A DNA stretch of 12,384 nt from contig JAWXCN010000154.1 in NCBI GenBank assembly GCA_034408725.1, positions 1-12,384 of the forward strand. Reading direction: 5' to 3'. Both the position numbers and the translations under genes were made by a program. The stretch is from Candidatus Hydrogenedentota bacterium (GTDB lineage: Bacteria; Hydrogenedentota; Hydrogenedentia; Hydrogenedentales; SLHB01). This document shows, in pieces, positions 2-12,342 of the stretch. The first letter of the stretch is position 1. Each line of letters starts with the position of its first letter. The notes under the pieces were generated by a model. It saw only the letters and a list, made by a program, of their open reading frames with translations, did no database searches and was not told the origin of the DNA.

Positions 2-1375
2 ATGTGCGCGTTCGGAAGCACGCGCCACCCGAAGTCCGCGGTTGAAGACGACGCAAACCTCAAAGCGCTGCTCGCCGCCGGCACCGAGATCGTCACCATC
101 TTCGCGAAGTCCTCGCGCGTGCAGGCGAAAGAAATCTTGCGCGTATCTCTCGATGAAAATGTCAAACTCACAGGCGAATCCGTAGCGTATCTCAAAGCGC
201 AAGGCAAACGCGTGTTCCTCGATGGCGAACATTTTTTCGACGGATTCTTTGATGATTCGGAATACGCGCTATCCGTGCTCGAAGAATCCTGGCGCAACGG
301 AGCGGAAGTATTGATCCTTTGCGACACCAACGGCGGACGCCTCCCTTCCGAAATCGCGCATGCCACTCGCGCGGTGATTGAGCGCCTGCCCAAAGCGCCG
401 ATCGGCATCCACGCGCACAACGACGCGGGCTGCGGTGTGGCGAACAGTATCGCCGCGGTCGAAGCGGGCGCGGTACACATCCAGGGCACGATCAACGGCT
501 ACGGCGAACGCACCGGCAACGCCAACCTCACGACGATTATCCCGACGGTGCAACTCAAGATGGGCGCGAAACTCGTCAGCGACAAACAACTCGCGAAACT
601 CACGCACGTCTCGCATCTCGTCGCCGAACTCGCGAACATGAACCCGCGCGATTCCGATCCCTACGTAGGCCGCGACGCATTTACGCACAAAGGCGGCATG
701 CACGCCGACGCAGTCAACAAACTCAAATCCAGTTACGAACACATCGAACCCGAAACTGTCGGCAACCGCACGCACATCGCCGTGAGCGAAGTGTCGGGCC
801 GCTCGAGTTTGTTGCAAAAAGCCGCGGACTTCGGCATCACCCTCGAGCGCGATGCAGCCGAAACGCGCGACGTGCTCAAGCGCGTAAAAGATATGGAAAG
901 CGAAGGCTACGAATTCGAAGGCGCCGACGCCTCACTCGAACTGCTAATGCTCCGCGCAAAAGGCCACGACAAAAAATTCTTCACGCTCCTCGGCTACCGC
1001 GTCAGCGTAGAAACATCAGACGGCAACGGCGACTCCAAATCCGAAGCCACCGTCAAAGTCGAGCTGCCCGATGGCCAGTGCGTACACACCGCGGCAGAGG
1101 GCGCCGGGCCCGTTGACGCCATCAACAACGCACTCCGTAAGGCGCTCGAAGGCAAATACCCCGAACTCGAAAAAGTCCACCTCGAAGACTACAAAGTCCG
1201 CATCCTCGACGGCCAATCCGCCACCAGCGCCAAAACCCGCGTCTTCATCGAATCCACCGACGGCGACACCGAATGGGATACCGTAGGCGTCTCGGAAAAT
1301 ATCATCGCCGCATCGGTGCATGCATTGCTGGATAGCATTGAATACAAGCTCTACCGTACAGCGAACAAGACATAG
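2..1375 (+). CDS. cimA: Citramalate synthase (LeuA/CimA family, DRE-TIM metallolyase with C-terminal LeuA regulatory domain); 5' end lies outside the window
   Basis: Motifs AFGST, DGEHFFDGF, LCDTNGG, GIHAHND, GTINGYGERTGNANL, YVGRDAFTHKGGMH, GYEFEGADASLEL and DYKVRIL are typical of the bacterial CimA clade. The ORF is open to the window edge. Confidence 0.9.
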   Translation: MCAFGSTRHPKSAVEDDANLKALLAAGTEIVTIFAKSSRVQAKEILRVSLDENVKLTGESVAYLKAQGKRVFLDGEHFFDGFFDDSEYALSVLEESWRNGAEVLILCDTNGGRLPSEIAHATRAVIERLPKAPIGIHAHNDAGCGVANSIAAVEAGAVHIQGTINGYGERTGNANLTTIIPTVQLKMGAKLVSDKQLAKLTHVSHLVAELANMNPRDSDPYVGRDAFTHKGGMHADAVNKLKSSYEHIEPETVGNRTHIAVSEVSGRSSLLQKAADFGITLERDAAETRDVLKRVKDMESEGYEFEGADASLELLMLRAKGHDKKFFTLLGYRVSVETSDGNGDSKSEATVKVELPDGQCVHTAAEGAGPVDAINNALRKALEGKYPELEKVHLEDYKVRILDGQSATSAKTRVFIESTDGDTEWDTVGVSENIIAASVHALLDSIEYKLYRTANKT

Positions 1376-1389
1376 TATTGGCCACGAGC

Positions 1390-1420
1390 AACTTGAAGTC
1401 GCAGTTTACGACTTCAAGTT
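1390..1420. terminator. Perfect 12-bp hairpin between convergent cimA and SDR genes; probable (possibly bidirectional) terminator or REP-like palindrome
   Basis: AACTTGAAGTCG-cagttta-CGACTTCAAGTT, starting 15 nt after the cimA stop; only a short T-run follows. Confidence 0.55.
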
Positions 1421-1498
1421 TACAACCTATTGATGCGAAGGTGGATATGACGAGTCATGGCACCTACCGAGGTCTCCCCACCCCCGATCACCCAGCGC

Positions 1499-2359
1499 TT
1501 AAATGGCCTTGTCCATAAACTTCAAGATGAGCACATCGCGCCAGCGATCGGGCAGCTTGGCAAGGAGCATTTGGATTCGGGCGTCTTTACCGACGAGGTA
1601 GCGGGTTTTTGGTTTTGCGGCGGTAAGCGCATGGGCGACGGCGTCGGCGACGACTTGGGCCGGCACGGCGGATTTTGCAGTTTGGCTTGCGCCTTTTTTT
1701 ATCATGGCGACAAGCGGCGCGTACAACTCCATCATGCGTGGCGGCAACGAATCTAGCAGGGCGTTGCCGGCGGCAACGGATTTTTCCCAGATCGGCGTGT
1801 CGATCGCGCCGGGTTGGACGAGCGCGACTTCGATGCCCCAGGGTCGCAGTTCCATGCGCAATGAATCGGTAAGGGCCTCCATTGCGAATTTTGATGCACA
1901 GTATGGTCCCCCCATAGGAATGGAGAGGCGGCCGCTTGTGGATCCAATGTTGACGATCCGGCCATGTGACGCGCGCAACGGTTCCAGAAATGCTTGTGTA
2001 ACGGCAATCTGGCCAATGACATTGACCTCGAGTTGTTGCCGCAATTTGTCGAGGGGGACAAATTCAAGTGGCGCGTTTATGCTGATGCCCGCGTTGTTCA
2101 CGAGTCCCGCGAGACCGGATTCGCCGGTGGTGGCTTTCACGGTGTCACGCGCGCTGATAATGGACGCTGCATCACACACATCGAGATATATCGCGGTGAA
2201 ACGGTCCGATGCCTGCGATTTTAGAGCATCGCCGTCGCTGTCTTTCCGCACGCCGGCGAACACCCGGAATCCGATACGGTCGAGGTGCAATGCGCATGCA
2301 GCACCGATTCCGGTCGATGCACCGGTGATAACAACTGCGCCTCGGGAGTGGGTAGTCAT
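1499..2359 (-). CDS. Classical short-chain dehydrogenase/reductase (17beta-HSD/RDH-like)
   Basis: TGASTGIG cofactor motif, LVNNAG, catalytic S and YCASK (YxxxK), 286 aa. Confidence 0.93.
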   Translation of the reverse strand: MTTHSRGAVVITGASTGIGAACALHLDRIGFRVFAGVRKDSDGDALKSQASDRFTAIYLDVCDAASIISARDTVKATTGESGLAGLVNNAGISINAPLEFVPLDKLRQQLEVNVIGQIAVTQAFLEPLRASHGRIVNIGSTSGRLSIPMGGPYCASKFAMEALTDSLRMELRPWGIEVALVQPGAIDTPIWEKSVAAGNALLDSLPPRMMELYAPLVAMIKKGASQTAKSAVPAQVVADAVAHALTAAKPKTRYLVGKDARIQMLLAKLPDRWRDVLILKFMDKAI

Positions 2360-2418
2360 TATTTCAAATCCTTTCGTGATTTGCAGCGCGAAGCGCCTTG
2401 GAGATACTGTTGTTTTTT

Positions 2419-2751
2419 TTAAGAGGGATTTAATCTCTTTTTGTAATTGGGGTCATAAGGTATTCCTGATACCAGAACGCCGCGCAGTTCCAAGCCGGCG
2501 ATGGCCCGCACGAACCAATGGGAATAAGCTCCGGTTGATTCAATGCACACGCCCAGGCACTCCCCCGCCTTAAGCGCCGGGGCAAGCCAATGGGCCAATT
2601 CAGGGATGCCTTTGGCATCGTTGGCCAAATGCCGTACCTCCAGCTTTGCCCATTCTGAAGTTTGAAAATGCAGGCCCGCCACGCACACATCAACCGTCGC
2701 CTTGGCAATGTCCACACCAATCCAAAAGCCGTCCTGCAATCGCTCCATCAT
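2419..2751 (-). pseudogene. IS110 transposase/recombinase remnant: N-terminal part of the RuvC-like DEDD domain fused in frame to the extreme C-terminus
   Basis: WIGVDIAKATVDV (first catalytic D) and VCIESTGAYS (catalytic E) are IS110 N-terminal motifs; RGVLVSGIPYDPNY resembles the IS110 C-terminal tail. The later catalytic D..D pair and the Ser-containing Tnp domain are absent. Start taken at ATG 2751 (GGAG 9 nt upstream); the ORF caller gives 2766. Confidence 0.85.
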
Positions 2752-2779
2752 CGTGTTACACTCCATTTCATTACACGAT

Positions 2780-2946
2780 ACGTCCGAAAGGGCGGCCTAC
2801 TTGTTGGGATACGAGCTTGGTATCGTCACCAGCTCCCGATACTGTTCACCGTCCTTCGGACACAAATGCAAATAGGCCTGATGCGGGAATCTCCAAATCG
2901 AGCTGTTCTACTAAACGCTCCAGTGCGGCATCCCTGCATCAGGCCC
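2780..2946 (-). ncRNA. IS110 bridge RNA (target-binding loop followed by donor-binding loop)
   Basis: Two long hairpins with internal loops. Target loop: closed by GGCCTGATGC/GCATCAGGCC (2875-2884/2936-2945), LTG TGCCGCACT (2930-2922), RTG TTTGGAG (2897-2891). Donor loop: closed by GTCCGAA/TTCGGAC (2782-2788/2855-2861), LDG ACAGTATC (2845-2838), RDG ACAAG (2804-2800). The guides match the flanking target and the element's own end junction. Confidence 0.88.
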
Positions 2947-2950
2947 TGTT

Positions 2951-2956
2951 ACTATA
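2951..2956 (-). promoter_or_regulatory. -10 box (TATAGT) of the predicted circle-junction promoter driving bridge RNA/transposase
   Basis: On circularisation TTAAAA from the right end (2422-2417) lies exactly 17 bp from TATAGT in the left end: TTAAAA-aaaacaacagtatcttg-TATAGT. Confidence 0.6.
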
Positions 2957-3092
2957 CAATTGCGGTAGCGGTAGCTACCGCTTTCAGTTTAAGACTCCAG
3001 CAGCGCCCCGCATCAGTCCAGACCACGCGCAATCCGAAGCGAAAGGGGTAGCTGCGTCCGAAGTGGACTGCGCTACCGCAGTCCAAGGCGCT

Positions 3093-3119
3093 GGAGTGCA
3101 GCGCGTAGCTGTCGCTTTT
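3093..3119 (+). repeat. Degenerate REP copy
   Basis: GGAGTGCAGCGCGTAGCTGTCGCTTT keeps the GGAGT foot, an imperfect stem and the CGCTTT tail. Confidence 0.5.
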
Positions 3120-3265
3120 CCTTCACACAATTACGGTTACATCATAATCAAGTGGGATTGCCCCAATGGACAAGGCAAGTGCCTGGTATATGCGCACCCT
3201 TGCGGGTATCATAAATACGCGCCAATACAGGCTGCGGCTGCATACGCGGAGGGTGGTGTTCAAGC

Positions 3266-4141
3266 ATGGCTATCGACCGCGAAGAGATCGACAAGCTCCA
3301 TGAAGAAGCTAAACGGGTCCGGAAAAACTTCCGGTACATCATTCAGGACCTGAAGCGCTCTCCCGAAAATATCGATCTGCTGCGTCAACGCGAGCACCTC
3401 AAAAAGCGTTACGACCAGATTCAAACCATGCTCACCGACGCGCGCGAAGCAAGGGACGCCCTCCTGGATGATGAACCGGAAGGGCAAGAAGTCCCGCAGA
3501 TCGATATGTCCATCTTCGAGCCAAAACCCTACGAGGTTCCCGTGGCGGTCGTGGTGCAGCAGAGGACAGCCTCGGCTCGCACTGGAGGGTCACCACTCAC
3601 ATTCAAGAACGTACGTATCGCTATTACGGCCGCGCTCCTGCTGGTATTGGTTCCGTTTTTCTACCTCTATTTCATGCGCAACATGCGCTTCTACGAAGTG
3701 CCGACACGGTCTATGGAACCTACGCTCCAGGCCGGCGACCGCATCATCGCCGTTGAACCGTCCCAGTACGCGCGCGGCGATATTGTCGTGCTGAACGACC
3801 CGCAAGCCCCCGGCGACTACCTCGTCAAACGCCTCGTCGCCTTCGCGGGCGATTCCATTGAAGTGGTCAACGGCGCACTACTGATAAATAACCAGCCCAT
3901 TGACGAACCCTATATTCGTGAACGTATGGAGTACATCTTCGGACCCGTTACGGTCTCCAATGAAGAAGTTTATCTGCTGGGCGACAACCGCAATGAAAGT
4001 GACGACAGCCATATCTGGCAATCCGGACGGCCCCTCTCCGAACTGCGCGGACGCGTCCACTTCATTTACAGCCCCTCGTCGCGCCGGAGCAGCCTCGACA
4101 ATCAGCGGGCACGGTTTCACGACGTCAAGTCGCCAGACTAG
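3266..4141 (+). CDS. lepB: Signal peptidase I (S26A) with long N-terminal cytoplasmic extension
   Basis: TM helix (IAITAALLLVLVPFFYLYF), catalytic Ser box PTRSMEPTL, RGDIVV, catalytic Lys YLVKRLV, LLGDNRNESDDS. Confidence 0.92.
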   Translation: MAIDREEIDKLHEEAKRVRKNFRYIIQDLKRSPENIDLLRQREHLKKRYDQIQTMLTDAREARDALLDDEPEGQEVPQIDMSIFEPKPYEVPVAVVVQQRTASARTGGSPLTFKNVRIAITAALLLVLVPFFYLYFMRNMRFYEVPTRSMEPTLQAGDRIIAVEPSQYARGDIVVLNDPQAPGDYLVKRLVAFAGDSIEVVNGALLINNQPIDEPYIRERMEYIFGPVTVSNEEVYLLGDNRNESDDSHIWQSGRPLSELRGRVHFIYSPSSRRSSLDNQRARFHDVKSPD

Positions 4142-4411
4142 GCAATCAAAAAGGCCCGTTCCGCTTCCGCAATCCAGTCCTCCTCCCCAAAAACATAATC
4201 ATTCCTGACTATTTGGTGTTTACGGCCCAACTTCTTTTGTTGTTCTGCGCCCAGTTTTGCCAGCTAGATTCTTATCGACAAACAAGTTACATAGTTTTTA
4301 GACTTGGCCCGCATTTTGCTCACTTAATGAAACTCTGGCTGCATGAACGGACTGTGCAGATAAGCGACGATGGCCGTGCTGGGAGCGCGGCCCAAGAAGG
4401 GCTCCGCATTG

Positions 4412-4654
4412 ATGAAGATGATCGAATCGAACGAATTCCGTCAACAAACGATTTTGTTATTGCAGGAGATGAGTACGGCGCTGCGATATCTCTCCACGGA
4501 AATTGACAGCGCCGTTGTCAGCGAGCGCAAGGTTGACCACGATCTCCTGCGCCGCATTTCGCAAGCCTTGCAGAAGCAGCAGGGCCATTTGCTCAAAATC
4601 GCCGAATCGTCCGACCCCTATCGCATGCGCCGCGAAGTAGCCGAATCACGATAA
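4412..4654 (+). CDS. Small helical hypothetical protein (~80 aa)
   Basis: Plausible composition with amphipathic helices; start uncertain (4370, 4412 or 4418). Confidence 0.55.
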   Translation: MKMIESNEFRQQTILLLQEMSTALRYLSTEIDSAVVSERKVDHDLLRRISQALQKQQGHLLKIAESSDPYRMRREVAESR

Positions 4655-4658
4655 CCCC

Positions 4659-4773
4659 GGGACTGTCCCTCCGAATCCGCGGCAGTATTCGGATTAGCAG
4701 GGACTGTCCCTTTACCGCAGGCAACGTCCCATTACGTTCCCGTGGCAGTACGCGGATTCGCAGGGACTGTCCC
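4659..4773. repeat. Three GGGACTGTCCC palindromes; the last two sit in a 30-bp direct repeat
   Basis: GGGAC-T-GTCCC at 4659-4669, 4700-4710 and 4763-4773; 4681-4710 vs 4744-4773 are 27/30 identical. Confidence 0.8.
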
Positions 4774-4845
4774 GTGTAACTGAAACTTGTGGGTCCGGGT
4801 GGAGCGTGGAAGCAGTCAGGAGCACTGCTTCCACGCTTTTAGTTT

Positions 4846-6183
4846 TTACGACGCAAGCCGTGGCGCAGCGTCTGCGCTCGCATCCGCGGGGCGTTGTGTC
4901 GAATCCATCGGGCCCGGATTCCCCGCGGTGCTTTCCGGGACTGCTTCGCACACGTACCGTTTGCTCAAGAACGCGCATGCCGCGCCGAGGACACCCGTTG
5001 CAATAAAGCACGCGTAATACCCTGTTTCGTGCAGATGATCGATGACATACCCGGCCGCGATCGGCGGCAACGCGACCGCCATCGACGTCCCGATACTCCA
5101 AATGTTGGTGTAAAGCACGCGCCGGTCCCGTGGCACATACCCCAGCATGGCCCGGTTACCGGCAACGTTGTAGGCCGCGTTGAACACGCTCGCAATCACG
5201 AAGACTATCCACAGCATAGGTGGCGTATACCCGGCCGTCGGCGCGAGCAGCATGCAGGCCACTGCGCACGCCGCGTGCCCGAGCATGGACCAAAACATCG
5301 CCGAACCGCTCCCGGCATAGTCCGCAAAACGGCCCCACGCGGCAATCGTAAGGAATATGCCCAGTGCCCCCGCCGCCGTGACGGCCATGATGACGCTCGG
5401 CTGGAACATTAGAATCTCGCGCATGAACAGTATCAGCGAAGAACCCAGGAGCAACGCGAGGCTCGCATACCCCAACGAGGCGGTAAACACGAACGCCATA
5501 AACGAGCGATCGCGAAACGCCATCCGATAGCCAACGTAAGAACTATGTGTGCTCGGAACACTTGCCGCTTCGCCCCCGGGGATGAGCGCCATCCACACCA
5601 GGCTGACTAGACCCGCCCCGATCCCGATGGCGTATACCATCAGAAAACGCCACGAGCTGACTTCTCCGAACAGCAGGGCCGCCTGGATAAGGGCAACCAC
5701 CACACTGGTCAACTGCGTAACCGCCGCTTCCATGCTGAAATACGTGCCCCGCTGAACGTCCGGCACAAGCTCGTGCAGCCACGGCAACCACCCGCCCGCG
5801 CCCATCGCCCGTAACACACAAAACGCCAGCACTGAACCAACCAGCAGGTACTGCGCGTACCGCAGCCCCCATGTCGTTGCCAAAGGAATGAAAAACACGG
5901 CGCAGGCCAGCAGGTTTCGCAAAAGCCAGCCCGCGAACATGACCCGCTTCGGCCCGTAGTGGTTCACCAGCGGAACGGTAAGGCCCACCAACAGCATCGA
6001 CAGGGGCATAAAGGAAATAAGGAAACCGATGAGGGAAGCCTGCATCTCCAGCGACCGCGCAAAAAGTATCAGGGCGGGGCCGACAATGCACTGCCATGAA
6101 ATGACATTGAACACAATAAAAAACAGAAAACGCCGGGGACCGGCGTCCAGCTTACTTAGCCCGCTTATCAGTGGGATTCCCAC
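4846..6183 (-). CDS. MFS transporter (about 12 TM helices)
   Basis: About 12 hydrophobic segments; motif-A-like NHYGPKR and GRFADYAG. GTG start at 6183 preceded by AAGGA; the ORF caller extends to 6219. Confidence 0.85.
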   Translation of the reverse strand: MGIPLISGLSKLDAGPRRFLFFIVFNVISWQCIVGPALILFARSLEMQASLIGFLISFMPLSMLLVGLTVPLVNHYGPKRVMFAGWLLRNLLACAVFFIPLATTWGLRYAQYLLVGSVLAFCVLRAMGAGGWLPWLHELVPDVQRGTYFSMEAAVTQLTSVVVALIQAALLFGEVSSWRFLMVYAIGIGAGLVSLVWMALIPGGEAASVPSTHSSYVGYRMAFRDRSFMAFVFTASLGYASLALLLGSSLILFMREILMFQPSVIMAVTAAGALGIFLTIAAWGRFADYAGSGSAMFWSMLGHAACAVACMLLAPTAGYTPPMLWIVFVIASVFNAAYNVAGNRAMLGYVPRDRRVLYTNIWSIGTSMAVALPPIAAGYVIDHLHETGYYACFIATGVLGAACAFLSKRYVCEAVPESTAGNPGPMDSTQRPADASADAAPRLAS

Positions 6184-6368
6184 GGTTCCGTCCTTTTCTA
6201 CCGAAAAACAACAACACACCCTTGCCTATGCCGTGTATATGCATCCTTTCCGGACCGCATTTGGTGGCAAAACGGCATTCGGCATTAAACGGCCTAGATT
6301 ACACGAAAATCCCGCCAAAACGGTAGCGAAAGTTTGTGCGGAGAAAATTGAGTGGATGCGCGTGAACC

Positions 6369-6451
6369 GCCTTGGACTGCGGTAGCGGAAATGCCTTGGA
6401 CTGCGGTAGCGGAGTCCGCTTCGGACGCAGCTACCGCTTTCACTTCGGATT
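6369..6451. repeat. Partial REPIN (GGAC-type half) preceded by a duplicated REP 5' part
   Basis: 6393-6451 is 56/59 identical to 10754-10812; GCCTTGGACTGCGGTAGCGGA occurs at 6369 and 6393 (24-bp period). Confidence 0.85.
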
Positions 6452-6550
6452 ACTCTTTTGCTGCGGACGGCACCTTCGCTTCGGATTGCAGGCTGTTTAT
6501 GGAAGAATGCGCTGTCCAAGCACAGCAAAGGGTAGGCCATCTGTGATAAA

Positions 6551-6675
6551 CAGCCAAAGCGGCGCCTTGGGGGCCGCCGCAGTCCAAATAGGCTTCTTTC
6601 CAAAACATTGGTTTTCGGAGAAGGATTATTTGGACTGCGGTGGCGAAGCGGGTAGCGCAGACACCGCTTTGGCTG
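6551..6675. repeat. Inverted pair of variant REPs
   Basis: CAGCCAAAGCGG...CCGCAGTCCAAATA (6551-6590) and TATTTGGACTGCGG...CCGCTTTGGCTG (6627-6675) are inverted counterparts with different loops. Confidence 0.8.
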
Positions 6676-6755
6676 GTTATGGGCGATGGCTTCGTGCGCA
6701 CCTTAAGCGTAGACCAACTGGGCGAACAGTAAAACCGGCAGCGCCTCCCCACAGA

Positions 6756-7259
6756 CTATGGCGAATACCGGTTTTTCGGGGTTGGGTCTGGGCGTTTGAC
6801 GGCGCGCCGGCCCCGCTTATGTTTCAACGCCTCATCCACGCTCGCCAGCAAATCCGGCTCGTTCGCTTTGGGCCGTTTCATCCGCTGCTCGCGCTCGCGA
6901 ATTTCGCCCATCAACTTTGCGGCGTCGCCGAACGCCTTGTTCAGCATCAGCCGGCAATGGAAGCAATAGTCCGCATGTTTTTGCGCGGGCCGCTCTTTGC
7001 ACGCGGCGCAAAGACGATCCGATTCGATTTCGTGGGATAACAGCGTGCTGTTCTCAACCAGCTCGATTACTTTTTCGAGGGGCACGCCCGTGAACTCCGC
7101 GATTTCCTCGGGCTTGCGCAACCCGTGTTTCTCGATGGCATCCAGCACGCGATCCCCGTATTCGAGAAATTCCGTATTGCACCTCGCGCACAAATTCTTG
7201 CCCGGTGTTTCGGCAAATATCTTGCCACACCTCGGACACTTCGATAGTTTATTCGCCAT
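6756..7259 (-). CDS. YvyF/TIGR03826-like protein: zinc ribbon - HTH - zinc ribbon
   Basis: CPRCGKIF..LCARC, then EEIAEFTGVPLEKVIELV (HTH-like), then CAAC..YCFHC. ATG at 7259 overlaps the coaE 3' end; the ORF-caller start 7460 lies inside coaE. Confidence 0.72.
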   Translation of the reverse strand: MANKLSKCPRCGKIFAETPGKNLCARCNTEFLEYGDRVLDAIEKHGLRKPEEIAEFTGVPLEKVIELVENSTLLSHEIESDRLCAACKERPAQKHADYCFHCRLMLNKAFGDAAKLMGEIREREQRMKRPKANEPDLLASVDEALKHKRGRRAVKRPDPTPKNRYSP

Positions 7260-7851
7260 GCCCGTGAAGCTCCTCGGCGAGCGCGTCGACGCGCGCGTAC
7301 AACGCATCCTTGCTCCCCGTATTCTCAATGACCCAATCCGCCAGGGCAAGTTTGCATTCCGGTGGCGTCTGCGCGGAAATCCGTTTGCGCGCCTCCGCTT
7401 CGCTGAGCCCGCGATGCTCGACCAGCCTGCGCACGCGTTCGTCCTCCGGACACAGCACAAGGATCAATCCGCTGAGGTACGCATCTTTCACGCCCTTGTC
7501 CGCGATCAACGCGGCATCGATCATCACCATCGCATTCCCCTCTTCCGCCAGCGCGGCGCACTTGAGGGCAATCGTCATGCCGATGGCGGGATGCACGATT
7601 GCGTTGAGCCTGCGCAACGCCTCCGGGTCCGTGAACACACGCGCGCCAAGTTTGGCGCGGTCAATCTTTCCATCCGTGAGGATTCCACTGCCAAACGCAT
7701 CCAACACGTCTTTCTCCGCCGCGCCACCTGGCGCAATAACTTCGTGGCCGACCGCGTCCGCGTCGATGACGGGTACCCCGTGTTTTGCAAACTGGCGCGC
7801 CACCTCCGATTTTCCGCTACCCGTCCCTCCTGTTATTCCATAAATTCGCAT
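7249..7851 (-). CDS. coaE: Dephospho-CoA kinase
   Basis: GITGGTGSGKS P-loop, VIDADAVGH, IDRAKLGARVF, LNAIVHP, RISAQ, ADWVIEN. Confidence 0.96.
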   Translation of the reverse strand: MRIYGITGGTGSGKSEVARQFAKHGVPVIDADAVGHEVIAPGGAAEKDVLDAFGSGILTDGKIDRAKLGARVFTDPEALRRLNAIVHPAIGMTIALKCAALAEEGNAMVMIDAALIADKGVKDAYLSGLILVLCPEDERVRRLVEHRGLSEAEARKRISAQTPPECKLALADWVIENTGSKDALYARVDALAEELHGHGE

Positions 7852-7879
7852 GGGGGTTATTGCGCCAACACCATCTTTT

Positions 7880-8021
7880 TCGTGCTCGCGCTCGTGCTCG
7901 TAATCGTGCTCGTGCTCGTAATTCGATCTTGATAAATTCTCGATGCGTTGTCGAACTTCAGGAGGGGATCGAAAAATCGATTACGATTACGAGCACGAGC
8001 ACGAGCACGAGCACGAGCGCG
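7880..8021. repeat. Inverted arrays of hexamer repeats (TCGTGC/TCGTAA)n ... (TTACGA/GCACGA)n
   Basis: Seven TCG(TGC/CGC/TAA) units at 7880-7921, seven complementary units at about 7981-8022, and a unique ~55-bp middle. Confidence 0.85.
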
Positions 8022-8044
8022 ACGGAATGCAGCGTCTATCCCCA

Positions 8045-10681
8045 TCACCGTCCACCCGGGCGGGGCAACCGGACCGTTGCTCCCCGCGTTTGCGCGATCG
8101 CGATCTTCAGAAGATTCCCCGCCAGAATCGGCTTCTTGGGTATGATCTCGACAAGTCGCTCGCTGCCGTCATAACCAAATATATGGTCCACCTGCTCGAT
8201 GCCATCCGCGCTTTCGCACACGATACTGATATCTTCGACCTCGTTCGGCACGCGAAGAACAATCGTCTTCAGATAAACGGGGCTGTCGAACGTGAGATGT
8301 ACGTACTGCCGGTACCCGCGTTCGTCATCTTCACGAAATTTTACCCATCCAAAACTGATCGGCGTGAACAACGGCGCGCTGAGCATGAACACCCCAATTG
8401 GCAAATGCGGCCGCAACCACAACGCGCCATCGGGCGCATTAAACTGAAACCCCTGTAACGCATACAATACGTGCCACGCGGACAACGACCCCATGTGCCG
8501 GTCTTGCGCCCACCCGCACGCGTTATTGGCTTCGAGGTCCCACATCATCGGCTGGTTAAACACGCGGCCCCGGCGCGCATGAATATTTTTGCAGTTTTTC
8601 TGCACCGAAAACAGTCCGCGATCCGGGTAGCCATGCGTGATCATCAGGCTCGCGTAATACGCGGTGTCGAACGCAGGCCACGCCTGATCCGCGCCCGGCG
8701 GAAACCCGAGCGCAGGCGGGTTCTCGCATGGCGAGCCGTCCGGCATGACACCGTGCGCGACTCCGTTGCGCTGATCGTTGAGTTTGCAGATTGCGCCCAG
8801 CGCCTTCTTCACTTTCTCCTGCGGGAACAACTGTCCCAAACACAAGAAATCCGCGTACCACTGTCCCGCCAGTTGCGCGGCATCGCACGCCTCATTGCGT
8901 TCCATCGGCGCGCCGAACATCCCCTCGGCGGAATAAAGACGGTAGTATCCGCCTTCTTCATTCCATAATTTGCGATCAAAACTTTCCAGCGCGCGGGGCA
9001 ACAGCTCTTCGTACTTGAGCGCCTCTTCCTTGTCGCCCAACCGCCGCGCCAGACGTCCATACGCCCTCAACGCCGCGATCCACAGGCTGCTAGTGTAGCT
9101 GTTCACGCCATACACCGCCCAGGTATCGCGTGTCATCGAGCAACCCGACTGCTCGGGCAGGCCGTCGCCGTCCTGATCATGTTGCAGTACATAAGCCATC
9201 GCGTCGCGCAGTCGCGGCATGAGATGATCAAGAATAAACCGCTTGCCCGTCATCATGTAATTGCGGTACGCCGTCAACACGAAAACAATGCTCGTATCAA
9301 GCATCGGGTCGGGCGTGTCCCCGTGCGAGGGCTGGTGCATGCACTCCATGCCGAGATACCGGAAAATGCGCCCCGCATTTTCTTCGTCCCTTGGCCGGGC
9401 AATGCACGTCAACTCGCCTTCTTCAAAGTTTGGAAAGAACAACAGCGACCCAATCGAGCTGTACAGATGCCGGTCAAGCGTCGAAGTGCGCGGAGCCGCC
9501 GGCGACTCGAACATCGCGAAATCGTTGCCCTTGGTGTACAGCGTATTGGTCGACAACACGTAGTTGTTGTTGATCAACATCTTGCTGAACCATTGCGGCA
9601 ACGTCGACGTCATTATCCGCCGTTGCCAGTCTTCGACCGCCTTAAAATAATACCGGTGATAGGTGAGGCCCTGCGTGGCCACCTCGATCGCGTTGCGAAA
9701 CGGGTTGGCGTATCCATTTCCATGATCGAGGTCGTTGATAATATAGCGCGGGCAATACCACGCCAGCGCATACACGACGCTGCGGGATTGTTGCGGCCCC
9801 AAATCAAACGACGCGCACAACGCCCCGGAATGACTTGATTCGTTACGCGAAAGGTTGTTGCCCAACCGCCCGCTGTCATGAAACTGGTTCCAGAACACTT
9901 CGAGCTCGCGCGGGTCGCGTTCGTTCCACCCCAACATCGTCACTTGCACTTCCCGCTGCTGGCCGATCAACAAAGCATAGTTGCCTTCCGCGTTCGTGCG
10001 GAACCCGTCGCGAAAACCGAATTCGAGGCCGGCAATCAGCCGTTGATTCGGATCGACCGGTTCGGGTTCGTTCTTTTTGTCCTGATCACGGCTGACCAAC
10101 ACCGGCCGGATCGGGCCGCGCCGTTCGGGAAACAGGCCGCGCGCGCACCCGCACAGGTTCTCCCAATTCACGACGACCGAAACATCGTAAGAAACGTCCG
10201 AGGGATTGTTCACAAAGAACGACATCAGGATTAGCGGGAGCGTGCTCGCTTCATGGTCATAGGGAATGATCGGCGTCAGTGCGCTCCACGTGAGTTCAAG
10301 TGGAAACTGCGGGTCCTCGAGTTTGTAATGCGAACACGGATACACCCCGCGCCACGCCAACCGTTGCGACGCGGTATACGGCGCGACAATTCCCGCATCG
10401 GTGAACGGCAGCGCGCTATCGGTTTGAAGCAGCCGCAACGCGACTTTCCCGCGCCGCGCCGCGCGCACGCCAACCAACGATCCCGCGGAGACGTCAATGC
10501 GCGTTTCGGCCGTGCGATTATTATTAATCGTGATGTTCCGGAACCGCCCATCCCGGCCCAGCTCGCAGCAACCCGCGCCAACGCCGCCCAACGGCACCCC
10601 GGCGGTTTGCTGCTCAGACTCCGCCGCGTCCATCGCGTCGTTAAAATACGTCGGCGAACCCTGTGACACCCTAACCTCCAT
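8045..10681 (-). CDS. GH116 family (GBA2-like) glycoside hydrolase, divergent
   Basis: N-terminal GVPLGGVGAG, PIIPYDHEASTLP, ALAWY; catalytic domain FAMFES, TLDR, DQDGDGLPE..TRDTW..GVNSYTSSLWIAAL, LWNEEGGYY, QLAGQWYA. Start could be 10634. Confidence 0.88.
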   Translation of the reverse strand: MEVRVSQGSPTYFNDAMDAAESEQQTAGVPLGGVGAGCCELGRDGRFRNITINNNRTAETRIDVSAGSLVGVRAARRGKVALRLLQTDSALPFTDAGIVAPYTASQRLAWRGVYPCSHYKLEDPQFPLELTWSALTPIIPYDHEASTLPLILMSFFVNNPSDVSYDVSVVVNWENLCGCARGLFPERRGPIRPVLVSRDQDKKNEPEPVDPNQRLIAGLEFGFRDGFRTNAEGNYALLIGQQREVQVTMLGWNERDPRELEVFWNQFHDSGRLGNNLSRNESSHSGALCASFDLGPQQSRSVVYALAWYCPRYIINDLDHGNGYANPFRNAIEVATQGLTYHRYYFKAVEDWQRRIMTSTLPQWFSKMLINNNYVLSTNTLYTKGNDFAMFESPAAPRTSTLDRHLYSSIGSLLFFPNFEEGELTCIARPRDEENAGRIFRYLGMECMHQPSHGDTPDPMLDTSIVFVLTAYRNYMMTGKRFILDHLMPRLRDAMAYVLQHDQDGDGLPEQSGCSMTRDTWAVYGVNSYTSSLWIAALRAYGRLARRLGDKEEALKYEELLPRALESFDRKLWNEEGGYYRLYSAEGMFGAPMERNEACDAAQLAGQWYADFLCLGQLFPQEKVKKALGAICKLNDQRNGVAHGVMPDGSPCENPPALGFPPGADQAWPAFDTAYYASLMITHGYPDRGLFSVQKNCKNIHARRGRVFNQPMMWDLEANNACGWAQDRHMGSLSAWHVLYALQGFQFNAPDGALWLRPHLPIGVFMLSAPLFTPISFGWVKFREDDERGYRQYVHLTFDSPVYLKTIVLRVPNEVEDISIVCESADGIEQVDHIFGYDGSERLVEIIPKKPILAGNLLKIAIAQTRGATVRLPRPGGR

Positions 10682-10750
10682 TAAAAAAACCGGACCAACT
10701 ACAGCGCGCGCCCAACAGCGCTCAAATCAAATCCGCCCTAACGCGCGCGG

Positions 10751-10890
10751 AGCGCCTTGGACTGCGGTAACGGAGTCCGTTTCGGACGCAGCTACCGCTT
10801 TCGCTTCGGATTGGAAGCGGTCTGGACTGATGTGAGGTGCTGCTGGTCTCTTGAAGTGAAAACGGTAGCTACCGCTACCGCACTCCAAAG
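10751..10890. repeat. Intact REPIN (GGAC-type REP, spacer, inverted GGAG-type REP) just downstream of the RAYT
   Basis: CCTTGGACTGCGGTAAC...GCTACCGCTTT ... AAACGGTAGCTACCGCTACCGCACTCCAAAG; homologous over its full length to the IS-interrupted copy. Confidence 0.9.
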
Positions 10891-10928
10891 CCACGCGTAC
10901 CAATTGCTCAAACCCATCCACCTCCACT

Positions 10929-11496
10929 TCACCAATCCCCCGAAACCTCGTAATCATCTTTTACATTCACCGTATCCGCCTTGAACCGGTAGATACTCCT
11001 AACCTGCGCCGGCGCCGCTACACGTTCAAACCACGCCGCTGAACCAATCATACTGATTCGCGACCGCAACGAGCCCATGCTTCACGGCGTTCTGGTGAAC
11101 GTAGTTCAATCGCGCCAGATACGATTTCTCATACGTCAACTGGGTTTCGCGAAAGTTGTACCAAACTCTTCTGCCTTTCGCGTCGTCGAGCCGGTTGACC
11201 CATAATGCCAGCTTCGAGTGAAGCTCCATCGATATATTCGACAAACTCGCCGCAGTTTCCTCTTCAATAGGAGAATGCGCCACGAAATGATAGTGGTTGG
11301 AAAATACCGCCCAAGCTTCGACGCGCCACCCATATTTTTGTGTGACTTTAATAAGACCGCGTTGGAGAATGGCCAACCGCTCTGCGCCTCGAAAGTGTTG
11401 CTCCTGGTTATAAGTGCTCGCCGTAACAAAAAAAGTCCCTGACTCGGAGAGCTGATGCACTGGCGCGTGTGGCCATGGAAAAGAAGTTTCGCTCAT
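10929..11496 (-). pseudogene. REP-associated tyrosine transposase (RAYT, HUH Y1 / IS200-IS605 superfamily) with a frameshift near 11043
   Basis: FFVTAST, AWAVFSNHYHFV (HUH), VWYNFRET, YVHQNAVKHGLV..Y.W (catalytic Tyr region). The called ORF stops at 11026, but another frame continues SAAWFERVAAPAQVRSIYRFKADTVNVKDDYEVSGDW* to 10929. REPs flank both sides. Confidence 0.85.
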
Positions 11497-11548
11497 GTGC
11501 GCAATGCTGTCACACCTCTGTTCTCGCCGCAACATGCCTTCGCATACT

Positions 11549-11880
11549 CCCAAAGCGGTAGCTACCGCTACCGCACTCCAAGGCGTCGAACTGCGGCGAA
11601 TCAACCTTGGACTGCGGCGTGTAAGCGCCGCTTTCACTTCATCCATACCGATCGCCGCGGATCATGTGGAAACCAAAGCCTATCGCCACCCCAAAGCGGT
11701 AGCTACCGCACTCCAAGGCACCGAACTGCGGCGAATCAACCTTGGACTGCGGCGTGTAAGCGCCGCTTTCACTTCATCCATACCGATCGCCGCGGATCAC
11801 TTTGCAAACCGCGGATCACGTGGAAACCACAAGCCTATCGCCACCCCAAAGCGGTAGCTACCGCTACCGCACTCCAAGGC
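11549..11880. repeat. BIME-like array of alternating inverted REPs (A-B-A-B-A) upstream of the RAYT
   Basis: A = AAAGCGGTAGCTACCGCTACCGCACTCCAAGGC at ~11552, ~11693 (6 bp shorter) and ~11848; B = CCTTGGACTGCGGCGTGTAAGCGCCGCTTT at 11605 and 11740. The linkers are also repeated. Confidence 0.93.
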
Positions 11881-12342
11881 TCACGTCAAATGTTTCGTCA
11901 TAATCAGCGCGTCCTCGTCCGTGGTCGGATAGTATCGGCGCCGGCGTCCCGTGACCAGGAACCCCATGCTTTCATACAAACTACGCGCGCGCACGTTCGA
12001 CTCGCGCACCTCGAGTGTCGCCGCCAACACGCCATTCGTTTTCGCCGTCTCAAGAATGTGCTGCAACAGCCGCCGTCCGTGGCCAAGGCCGCGGTGTATG
12101 TCGCGAATGGTGACGCTCGTGATGTGCGCTTCATCCAGTAACGGCCAATATCCGCCGTAGCCGATCAATTCGCCCCCGATTAGCACCACGACAAACTGTG
12201 ATCGCGGATGCGTGATCTCCTCACGAAACATTCCCTCGGTCCACGGTTCCGGATACGCCTCCTGCTCGATCAACAGAATTCCCGGCAAATGCTCCTCCGC
12301 GATGCGTTCAAAGCGAAGCTCCGTTTTCTCCGATACACTCAT
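11881..12342 (-). CDS. rimI: Ribosomal protein S18-alanine N-acetyltransferase (GNAT)
   Basis: IEQEAYPEPW, EAHITSVTI, RGLGHGRRLL (acetyl-CoA motif A), LEVRESN..A..LYE..GF...GRRRRYY...EDALIM. Confidence 0.93.
   Translation of the reverse strand: MSVSEKTELRFERIAEEHLPGILLIEQEAYPEPWTEGMFREEITHPRSQFVVVLIGGELIGYGGYWPLLDEAHITSVTIRDIHRGLGHGRRLLQHILETAKTNGVLAATLEVRESNVRARSLYESMGFLVTGRRRRYYPTTDEDALIMTKHLT

Follow-up and report, generated by a model that had tools for sequence, protein, structure and literature searches.

An IS110 relic with a predicted bridge RNA lies in a RAYT-associated REP of a Candidatus Hydrogenedentota bacterium

Introduction

Insertion sequences (IS) use repetitive extragenic palindromic sequences (REPs) as targets (Nunvar et al. 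2010, PMC2817692), and for IS621 of E. coli, an IS110 element, 144 of 173 mapped insertions lie in REPs, the target being ATCAGGC-CT-AC (PMC11208160). CTAC is complementary to GTAG, the head needed by TnpA-REP, and one cleavage site of this enzyme overlaps it (PMC3333891). Further REP-specific insertion sequences are ISPpu9 and ISPpu10 of Pseudomonas putida, ISPa11 and ISPsy8 (PMC1525189; PMC12288879; 10.64898/2026.03.19.712850), of which ISPpu9 and ISPpu10 are named IS110 elements (PMC12288879; 10.64898/2026.03.19.712850). Here we analysed a stretch of 12,384 bp (the window), which is the whole contig C154 of a draft genome (G000) of a Candidatus Hydrogenedentota bacterium, and describe a 557-bp relic of an IS110 element in a REP of a family that accompanies a clade of REP-associated tyrosine transposases (RAYTs). 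An earlier reading of the window from its letters alone (the sequence-only reading) had proposed three layers: a RAYT, its REPs and an IS110 element aimed at those REPs.

The window element resembles IS621 in several respects. Its recombinase family is homologous over the full length (the intact relative P0002 versus 8wt6_A, E 8.1e-41), the left end harbours, ahead of the gene, a bridge RNA with a target and a donor loop, the core of the family is CT, and insertion is into REPs. The geometry is also the same, the 3' stem arm of the REP being read by the left guide, and the conserved head by the core together with the right guide (here TACCGCA-CT-CCAA). In contrast, the REP family and its head are unrelated to those of IS621, the host belongs to a different, small phylum (135 genomes) far from Proteobacteria, the right guide pairs 6-7 bases versus 4 in IS621, and the window copy is without catalytic domain and has AT as its left core. 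The sequence-only reading took the element for an apparently independent parallel to IS621; because the recombinase is a full-length homologue of that of IS621, the two lineages may share a REP-seeking ancestry. A blastn search of L014, a contig with a relative of the window element, against E. coli genomes gave no match.

Like ISPpu9, ISPpu10, ISPa11 and ISPsy8, the element is site-specific for REPs of a RAYT-carrying genome, and, as in ISPpu10, where a stem-loop just 5' of the paired target aids recognition, its target abuts the REP hairpin; going by their descriptions, the four published elements are set apart by host phylum, REP sequence and guide sequences. With the E. coli system of TnpA-REP and REPs or bacterial interspersed mosaic elements ('REPtron'; PMC3333891, PMC2817692) the locus shares a single HUH/Tyr gene flanked by its own REPs, each composed of a conserved head and an imperfect palindrome and occurring in inverted pairs and arrays. 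It differs from the REPtron in that the head is TTGGAGTGCG and not GTAG, the gene is frameshifted and scores just under the NCBIfam cut-off, and the system is known here from sequence alone. In Pseudomonas and Neisseria, REPs likewise form inverted pairs (REP doublets forming hairpins, REPINs) of ~100-140 nt that go with a RAYT present in one copy, frameshifts inactivate RAYTs, and REPINs decay once the RAYT is lost (10.1101/2021.07.10.451892); in the window, by comparison, the two arms differ at one base (CACTCC versus CAGTCC) and only one of them is an IS target.

REPs as targets of IS and IS110 elements, RAYTs as neighbours of REPs and the concordance of guide and target are thus already published (PMC1525189, PMC2817692, PMC11208160), and the three-layer idea of the sequence-only reading is not new. 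A literature search found no paper on an internally deleted IS110 element that keeps its bridge RNA, which is a weak negative.

Results

A 557-bp element interrupts a REP precisely

The draft genome consists of 280 contigs (5.17 Mb, 57% G+C, 92% completeness), and the sequencing runs that hold the window are labelled as microbial mat metagenomes. The following features describe the insertion (window coordinates, as in all lists below):

2404-2960, minus strand: relic of an IS110-family element, 557 bp with one core copy included; left junction CCGCA-AT-TGTATAG, right junction ACAGTAT-CT-CCAAGG
2386-2403, minus strand: right half of the split REP; CT core at 2403-2402, then CCAAGGCGCTTCGCGC
2961-3092, minus strand: remainder of the split REPIN-like unit, 87% identical to the complete copy at 10751-10882

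The relic cuts a REPIN-like repeat of ~139 nt in two, with CCGCA directly before the break and CTCCAAGG directly after it. Read on the minus strand, the unit 3092-2961 keeps to the alignment of the family up to CCGCTACCGCA and diverges from ATTGTATAGTAAC on, the break falling exactly after CCGCA. The missing REP end CTCCAAGGCGC was located at 2403-2393, and CTCCAAGGCGCTTCGCGC was found at 2403-2386, directly behind AACAACAGTAT. When 2404-2960 was removed in silico with a script, a 39-nt site resulted; it is found once without mismatch, on contig C223, and 2, 3, 7 and 15 times at up to 1, 2, 3 and 4 mismatches, respectively. Since the restored site matches genomic copies of the REP, these 557 bp were inserted precisely into a REP. 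In three further runs, contigs cross the insert without differences (2172-3037, 1749-3037 and 2148-3037).

Members of the IS110 bridge-RNA group carry the same core dinucleotide at both junctions and no further duplication. The window copy has CT at the right and AT at the left junction, with the same letters in contigs of 3 runs, whereas CT stands at both junctions, and thus also at the left one, in all 4 relatives described below. An orthologous empty site could not be located in four genomes of the same genus because synteny is lost there: lepB matches were 66-72% identical at the DNA level and the short-chain dehydrogenase gene was never adjacent to lepB.

The recombinase gene carries a large internal deletion

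2419-2766, minus strand: remnant recombinase open reading frame (ORF), 115 aa; the first ~94 residues, joined in frame to the final ~22

The remnant ORF scored 32.9 bits against NF033542 (cut-off 140; positions 1-68/69 of 343) and 23.8 bits against PF01548 (cut-off 29), where it covers profile positions 1-77 of 155 and is a fragment only. It is the sole IS110 profile match in the 92%-complete genome, and the profile search found no intact IS110 recombinase partner in the G000 assembly. A search for longer proteins yielded three 339-aa relatives (P0002-P0004), 52-57% identical over 77% of the query, which carry full PF01548 and PF02371. In the alignment with these relatives, the window protein skips from residue ~94 to the last ~22 (LRGVLVSGIPYDPNYKKRLNPS), so that ~220 internal codons are gone, including the whole C-terminal catalytic domain (PF02371). 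Among solved transposases, P0002 matched ISCro4 (E 1.7e-43) as well as IS621 over its full length. Because its catalytic domain is deleted, the window element is, to judge by its sequence, a relic of a member of the IS110 bridge-RNA (IS621-type) group and not a functional member, and it probably cannot move.

A predicted bridge RNA with guides fitting the target flanks and the element ends

2779-2947, minus strand: bridge RNA; target-binding stem-loop ~2946-2874, donor-binding stem-loop ~2871-2771
2922-2930, minus strand: left target guide TGCCGCACT; left flank TACCGCA + CT, 8/9
2891-2897, minus strand: right target guide TTTGGAG, complement of CTCCAAA; occupied site CTCCAAG, 6/7
2838-2845, minus strand: left donor guide ACAGTATC, equal to the element right end ACAGTAT-CT; invariant in 7/7 aligned bridge RNAs
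2816-2823, minus strand: candidate right donor guide ATACCAAG, discontiguous complement of the left end CTTGTAT (window: ATTGTAT), assigned by eye

Folding of the 192 nt that separate the left end from the ORF gave two stem-loops containing internal loops (minimum free energy -75.6 kcal/mol, z -4.40), and none of 200 shuffled sequences equalled this. A consensus of seven bridge RNAs (the four closest, that of the same-order genome G040 and two distant ones) contains 41 pairs, 15 of them compensatory on both sides; the four closest are 88% identical column by column and keep all stems. Against the bridge-RNA model R1, which was built including the window sequence, the window RNA scored 178.5 bits. 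Rfam 15 gave no match at gathering scores for the bridge RNA, and a 721-nt stretch searched against Rfam at an E threshold of 10 gave two weak unrelated matches only (E 1.3 and 7.2).

Guides were defined as in PMC11208160, the left target guide being 9 bases long with the core included, and the right one complementing the top strand; the discontiguous pairing of the donor guide is also a pattern described there. Guides and occupied flanks of the five elements of the sub-lineage compare as follows:

Window: left guide TGCCGCACT, flank TACCGCA+CT, 8/9; right CTCCAAG, 6/7
L014: left guide CGGCGCACT, flank CGGCGCA+CT, 9/9; right 5/5 of the available flank bases
L028: left guide GGGCGCACT, flank GGGCGCA+CT, 9/9; right CTCCAAA, 7/7
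L047: left guide GGGCGCACT, flank GGGCGCA+CT, 9/9; right CTCCAAA, 7/7
G040 element: left guide ATCCGCACT, flank TCCCGCA+CT, 7/9; right 6/7

The guides thus match the flanks in all five elements, and the variable bases of the left guide track the variable stem bases (TACCGCA, CGGCGCA, GGGCGCA, TCCCGCA). In each of the 7 aligned elements, the left donor guide ACAGTATC is identical to the right end. The window guide TGCCGCACT matches 38 other genomic REPs at 9/9; among the 153 target-type sites of the genome, to which these 38 belong, 42 carry TA and 46 carry CG. As in the IS110 bridge-RNA group, then, the non-coding left end forms two loops, and its guides fit both the target flanks and the element's own ends. 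The recombinase presumably used these guides as IS621 does.

Relatives occupy the same position of the REP

Four relatives with intact 339-aa recombinases lie at the same REP position, one in a genome of the same order (G040) and three on short environmental contigs (L014, of 1,257 nt, L028 and L047). L028 and L047 came from an 18-mer scan in which 28 stretches were found and 3 were real by blastn; the third of these, L030, was rejected as an independent relative, being the same DNA as window positions 8-5343. A metagenome scan with the protein alignment A3 gave 596 pattern matches, none of which was confirmed as a relative. The sequence-only reading had staked its case on other copies of the element also sitting in REPs, and this held for 4/4 relatives with DNA. 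In G040, the element is complete, its 339-aa ORF aligning to P0002 over residues 6-332; the whole IS lies inside a REP and an empty REP copy stands ~400 nt downstream.

Model R1 had matches in 10 of the 135 genomes of the phylum, of which only G000 and G040 hold an element aimed at CGCA-CT-CCAA. The remaining matches have other loops and reside in other sequences, and those distant relatives that have different loops (e.g. in G095 and G034) sit in sequences fitting their own loops. The IS110 elements of G125 and G016 (38-40% identical to P0002) and six further bridge-RNA matches are aimed at other sequences and were placed outside the REP-targeting sub-lineage.

The R1 matches L076 (G095), L077 (G034) and L078 (G092) are solo left ends of ~115-140 nt that end inside the donor loop at GGACGGTAT; in G095 and G034, CT comes directly next, and then sequence fitting the right target guide of the element itself. 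Recombination between the two look-alike sites seems to have deleted the part from the left-donor-guide sequence up to the true right end. The distant IS110 element of G125 (L057) appears to be bounded by a 15-nt direct repeat CTTGAATCGTCAAAA, found ~350 nt upstream of its ORF and at its right end.

The target belongs to an abundant family of REPs and REPINs

10751-10891, plus strand: complete REPIN-like unit (repeat alignment), 38 nt downstream of the RAYT reading frame; empty target at 10876-10889
11549-11880, plus strand: REP array upstream of the RAYT gene; three CACTCC-type heads and two CAGTCC-type units
6369-6451, plus strand: two tandem CAGTCC-type REP heads, then a hairpin (left part of a REPIN unit); core GT
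6573-6690, no strand assigned: two inverted CAGTCC-type REPs belonging to a second sub-family (CCGCAGTCCAAATAGG; repeat analysis, consensus of GT-type sites)

Four exact copies of the 14-mer target, begun at 10876, 11569, 11704 and 11865 on the plus strand, were confirmed. With one mismatch permitted, the window holds 8 matches versus 0.01 expected from shuffles, the other four reading CAGTCC where the exact copies read CACTCC. In the array upstream of the RAYT gene, the CACTCC-type heads are the empty targets 11569-11582, 11704-11717 and 11865-11878, and the interleaved CAGTCC-type units have the opposite orientation. The heads at 6369-6451 do not fit the guides because their core is GT.

The full unit is ~139 nt long, uniform in length, and ends in inverted repeats of ~20 nt, with GCCTTGGACTGCGGTAGCG at one end and CCGCTRCCGCACTCCAAGGC at the opposite one; the two arms differ systematically by one base (CAGTCC versus CACTCC). 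Counted over the genome, CCGCACTCCAA has 153 copies and CCGCAGTCCAA has 258, giving 411 core copies across 127 of the 280 contigs, and 29 of 90 blastn pieces are full-length ~139-nt units (inverted pairs), besides which single REPs and arrays are present. No target-site duplication was visible by eye in the 29 aligned REPIN copies. Stop-free frames of >=200 codons contain 50/153 and 75/258 of the sites (29%-33%) versus 87.6% of all bases, and the REP-type repeats of the window are all intergenic relative to its seven ordinary neighbour genes. The family therefore shows what is expected of REPs, i.e. a short palindromic unit of high copy number that is mostly extragenic and forms inverted pairs. 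As a contig end is no more than 300 nt away from 68 of the 411 sites (3.3% expected), the counts are lower bounds.

A screen of the genome for REP halves found, besides the window's own two junctions, no other REP that was clearly interrupted at the core. The ends of two contigs of the genome, C213 and C178, fall on or beside the IS core position of a REP: one contig starts precisely with CTCCAAGGCGC, the other with ACTCCAAGGCGC. Such ends may merely reflect the usual breaking of assemblies in repeats, or they may point to insertions that were not assembled. The array upstream of the RAYT gene contains a 135-nt tandem, whose copies at 11567-11664 and 11702-11799 are 98% identical, and contigs of some runs have an extra C behind 11564 or 11860, i.e. 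the array varies in the population.

A frameshifted RAYT gene and its clade accompany the REP head

10929-11496, minus strand: RAYT-like HUH/Tyr gene, frameshifted; frame 1 at 11496-11026 (156 aa), C-terminus in another frame at 11042-10929

The protein of this gene (P0005) has a sole match among solved structures, TnpArep of E. coli (4er8). Its HYH aligns with HMH of TnpArep, and the Y of YVHQNAVKHG with the first Y of YIYINPVKHG; we take this residue to be the catalytic tyrosine of the Y1 fold. The 206-aa RAYT ORF had no Pfam match at E<=0.01. While the homologues run on past QY.WCSAAWFE, the C-terminus of the window gene (SAAWFER, SAAWFERVAAPAQ), comprising the last 37 conserved residues, is out of frame, two bases being missing at ~11043 compared with the homologues. 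Contigs of two further runs span 10859-11578 without gaps and show the same sequence, and so the frameshift is not an artefact of a single assembly.

The gene is flanked on both sides by REP heads. P0005 has one match in the genome, and only the locus 10929-11496 among its five RAYT-like loci is flanked by the repeat (0/4 others). Sixty relatives were then searched with P0005, and homologues at E<=1e-10 were found in 17 genomes. At 10 of 11 fetched homologous loci, from different genera, the head (TTGGAGTGCG, as 8- or 9-mer) occurs in the flanks, mostly within a few hundred bases of the gene, its typical form being TTGGAGTGCG, then a hairpin whose stem is genome-specific but paired, then CTTTGG. 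By way of control, RAYT-like loci of other clades were inspected in five relatives; none of the 12 was flanked by the head, although 3/12 hold a single head 8-mer elsewhere in the locus. G040 has two uninterrupted RAYT reading frames, flanked by heads. RAYT and REP are therefore linked across genomes. The 15-mer REP pattern with one mismatch was counted 147 times in G000, 66 in G046, 41 in G043, 39 in G040, 28 in G014, 27 in G002, 16 in G042, 15 in G004 and 12 in G001.

Most of the arrangement put forward by the sequence-only reading was borne out: a RAYT gene embedded in REPs on both sides, REP copies scattered through intergenic regions, an IS110 derivative inside one of them with guides matching that REP (left 8/9, right 6/7), four empty targets in the window, and 153 genome-wide, as well as a REP family tied to this RAYT clade. 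Its proposal that REPs and RAYT co-occur across genomes is upheld from the side of the RAYT loci, 10/11 of which carry the head, and fails for five REP-bearing relatives in which no RAYT of the clade was found. The genome-wide count that it called for was obtained (153 and 258 copies), and the window REP was the only one clearly interrupted at the core.

Other features of the window

2-1375, plus strand: LeuA-like synthase
1499-2359, minus strand: short-chain dehydrogenase
3266-4141, plus strand: signal peptidase
4846-6219, minus strand: MFS transporter
6756-7460, minus strand: zinc-ribbon protein
8045-10681, minus strand: GH116 glycosidase
11881-12342, minus strand: GNAT acetyltransferase

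Just downstream of the GH116 gene, at 7880-8022, two inverted arrays of CGAGCA-like short repeats form arms of 43 nt that are 86% complementary. The summed contig depth of this stretch was 157-441 versus about 5-10 nearby, and contigs of two runs have 28 other letters in place of 7920-7978; the stretch is thus repeated and polymorphic. A second palindromic repeat, GGGACTGTCCC, unrelated to the REPs, lies at 4658-4774, downstream of a small ORF (4370-4654), and comprises two 34-nt direct copies and a 24-nt inverted pair; an 11-mer of it occurs 13 times in the genome.

Discussion

We consider it likely, with a probability of roughly 85%, that an IS621-type IS110 element integrated by bridge-RNA-guided recombination into the head of a RAYT-associated REP, and that the IS and the RAYT of the window decayed afterwards. 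The bridge RNA would have directed such an element to the conserved head of a REP whose family accompanies a RAYT clade. The head, a short invariant motif beside a hairpin, would be read by the right target guide and the core (CT-CCAA, complement of TTGG-AG), and the left target guide would read the adjacent arm of the stem, which varies between lineages. The window copy would then have suffered the in-frame deletion of ~220 codons, including those for the catalytic C-terminal domain, and a change of the left core from CT to AT. What is left would be a single, probably immobile relic with an intact-looking bridge RNA, next to a RAYT that is frameshifted as well. The three layers are real; all three look intact in G040, and two of the three are decayed in the window. 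Hence, the present tense of the sequence-only reading, in which the RAYT keeps producing REPs and the bridge element exploits them, does not apply here: the frameshift recurs in contigs of two further runs, and the IS is a single dead relic in an assembly with no intact recombinase. That reading had noticed neither the frameshift nor the internal deletion of the recombinase nor the AT at the left core.

Several points weigh against this account. The insertion is read from assembled sequence, and in contigs of 4 runs no joint skips 2404-2960, although contigs drop rare variants and are thus silent on an empty allele. The relic is single-copy in G000 (blastn), and the G040 element is single-copy, too. 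The contigs of three of the four relatives measure 1.3-2.2 kb and have short flanks, which in L014 amount to 7 and 5 bases only; the bin label G061 was rejected as the host of L014, since the REP 12-mer has 0 copies in G061 and the bin cannot name the host. Concerning the RAYT, the gene scored 74.1 bits against NF047646 (73.7 in the genome search), below the cut-off of 80, and its closest homologue (G003, 66% identical) is the exception among the 11 loci, with no head motif on its 3.3-kb contig. In G043, G014, G002, G004 and G001 no RAYT of the window clade was found at E<=1e-10, and because these five relatives bear REPs, presence of the REP does not require a detectable cognate RAYT. That the RAYT mobilised or generated the REPs is something we infer from work on E. 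coli (PMC3333891).

The decay of REPINs after loss of the RAYT would fit the REP-bearing relatives without a RAYT of the clade. Among these, G001, G002 and G004 belong to the same genus as G000 and have 12-27 matches to the REP 15-mer, as expected if REPs outlive their RAYT.

The 557-bp element might instead be a live, non-autonomous mini-IS, moved in trans by a full-length recombinase that was missed in the draft assembly. Its bridge RNA is as conserved as in the intact relatives (88% mean column identity, all stems), both element ends are present, multi-copy IS are often lost from draft assemblies, the REPs are enriched at contig ends (68/411), and a preprint on ISPpu10 names a trans-acting recombinase and the trans-mobilisation of split donors (10.64898/2026.03.19.712850). 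However, the element is single-copy by blastn, its remnant is the only IS110 match of the genome, it has AT as its left core in place of the CT of all 4 relatives, and the REP-half screen gave no further REP clearly interrupted at the core. The contigs bearing the insert have depths of 8, 6.7 and 5.85 (one depth figure per contig), not above those of neighbouring contigs, and we regard a live mini-IS as improbable. Still somewhat less probable is that the ~139-nt repeats are ordinary miniature inverted-repeat transposable elements of a DDE transposon, with the RAYT-like gene merely among them and no RAYT layer at all. Terminal inverted repeats of ~20 nt, the uniform unit length, the several REP-bearing relatives without a detectable RAYT of the clade and the frameshift in the window RAYT would all suit such elements, but they would not lead one to expect the TTGGAGTGCG head with its compensating hairpin and CTTTGG beside RAYT homologues at 10/11 loci of different genera, nor its absence from the flanks of other RAYT clades; moreover, no target-site duplication is visible by eye in 29 aligned copies, and single REPs and arrays occur besides pairs.

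A location in a REP by the coincidence of one insertion, with guides matching by chance, could be argued from the one copy per genome in both genomes with known context. With 5/5 elements of the sub-lineage at the identical position of the head, a left guide that co-varies with the flank, and distant relatives with other loops (G095, G034) in sequences that fit those loops, we give this explanation almost no credit.

Starting from guided integration into the REP head followed by decay, we tentatively propose, as something that falls a little short of an even chance, that this IS621-like sub-lineage tracks the RAYT/REP family through a little-studied phylum in a three-way arms race, with the core and right guide fixed on the head (TTGG-AG-TGCG and not GTAG) and the outer bases of the left guide re-tuned to the stem of each host. 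If true, the IS would target the part of the REP that the RAYT cannot let drift, the head presumably being kept invariant by the RAYT, and each insertion would sever head from hairpin and destroy that REP as a RAYT substrate, which would make the relationship an arms race rather than a safe harbour.

What is known about these systems is unchanged by our results, and their modest extra value lies in the link between a RAYT clade and a REP head and in a natural series of guide variants. The locus adds a well-resolved case in which bridge-RNA elements home to REPs, from a small phylum distant from Proteobacteria, and it connects the IS target with the conserved head of REPs found beside one particular RAYT clade. 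Taken together, the five junctions amount to a small series of natural reprogramming, in which the right and donor guides stay the same while the outer bases of the left guide follow the REP stem of the host, and this series could inform studies on the evolution of target loops.

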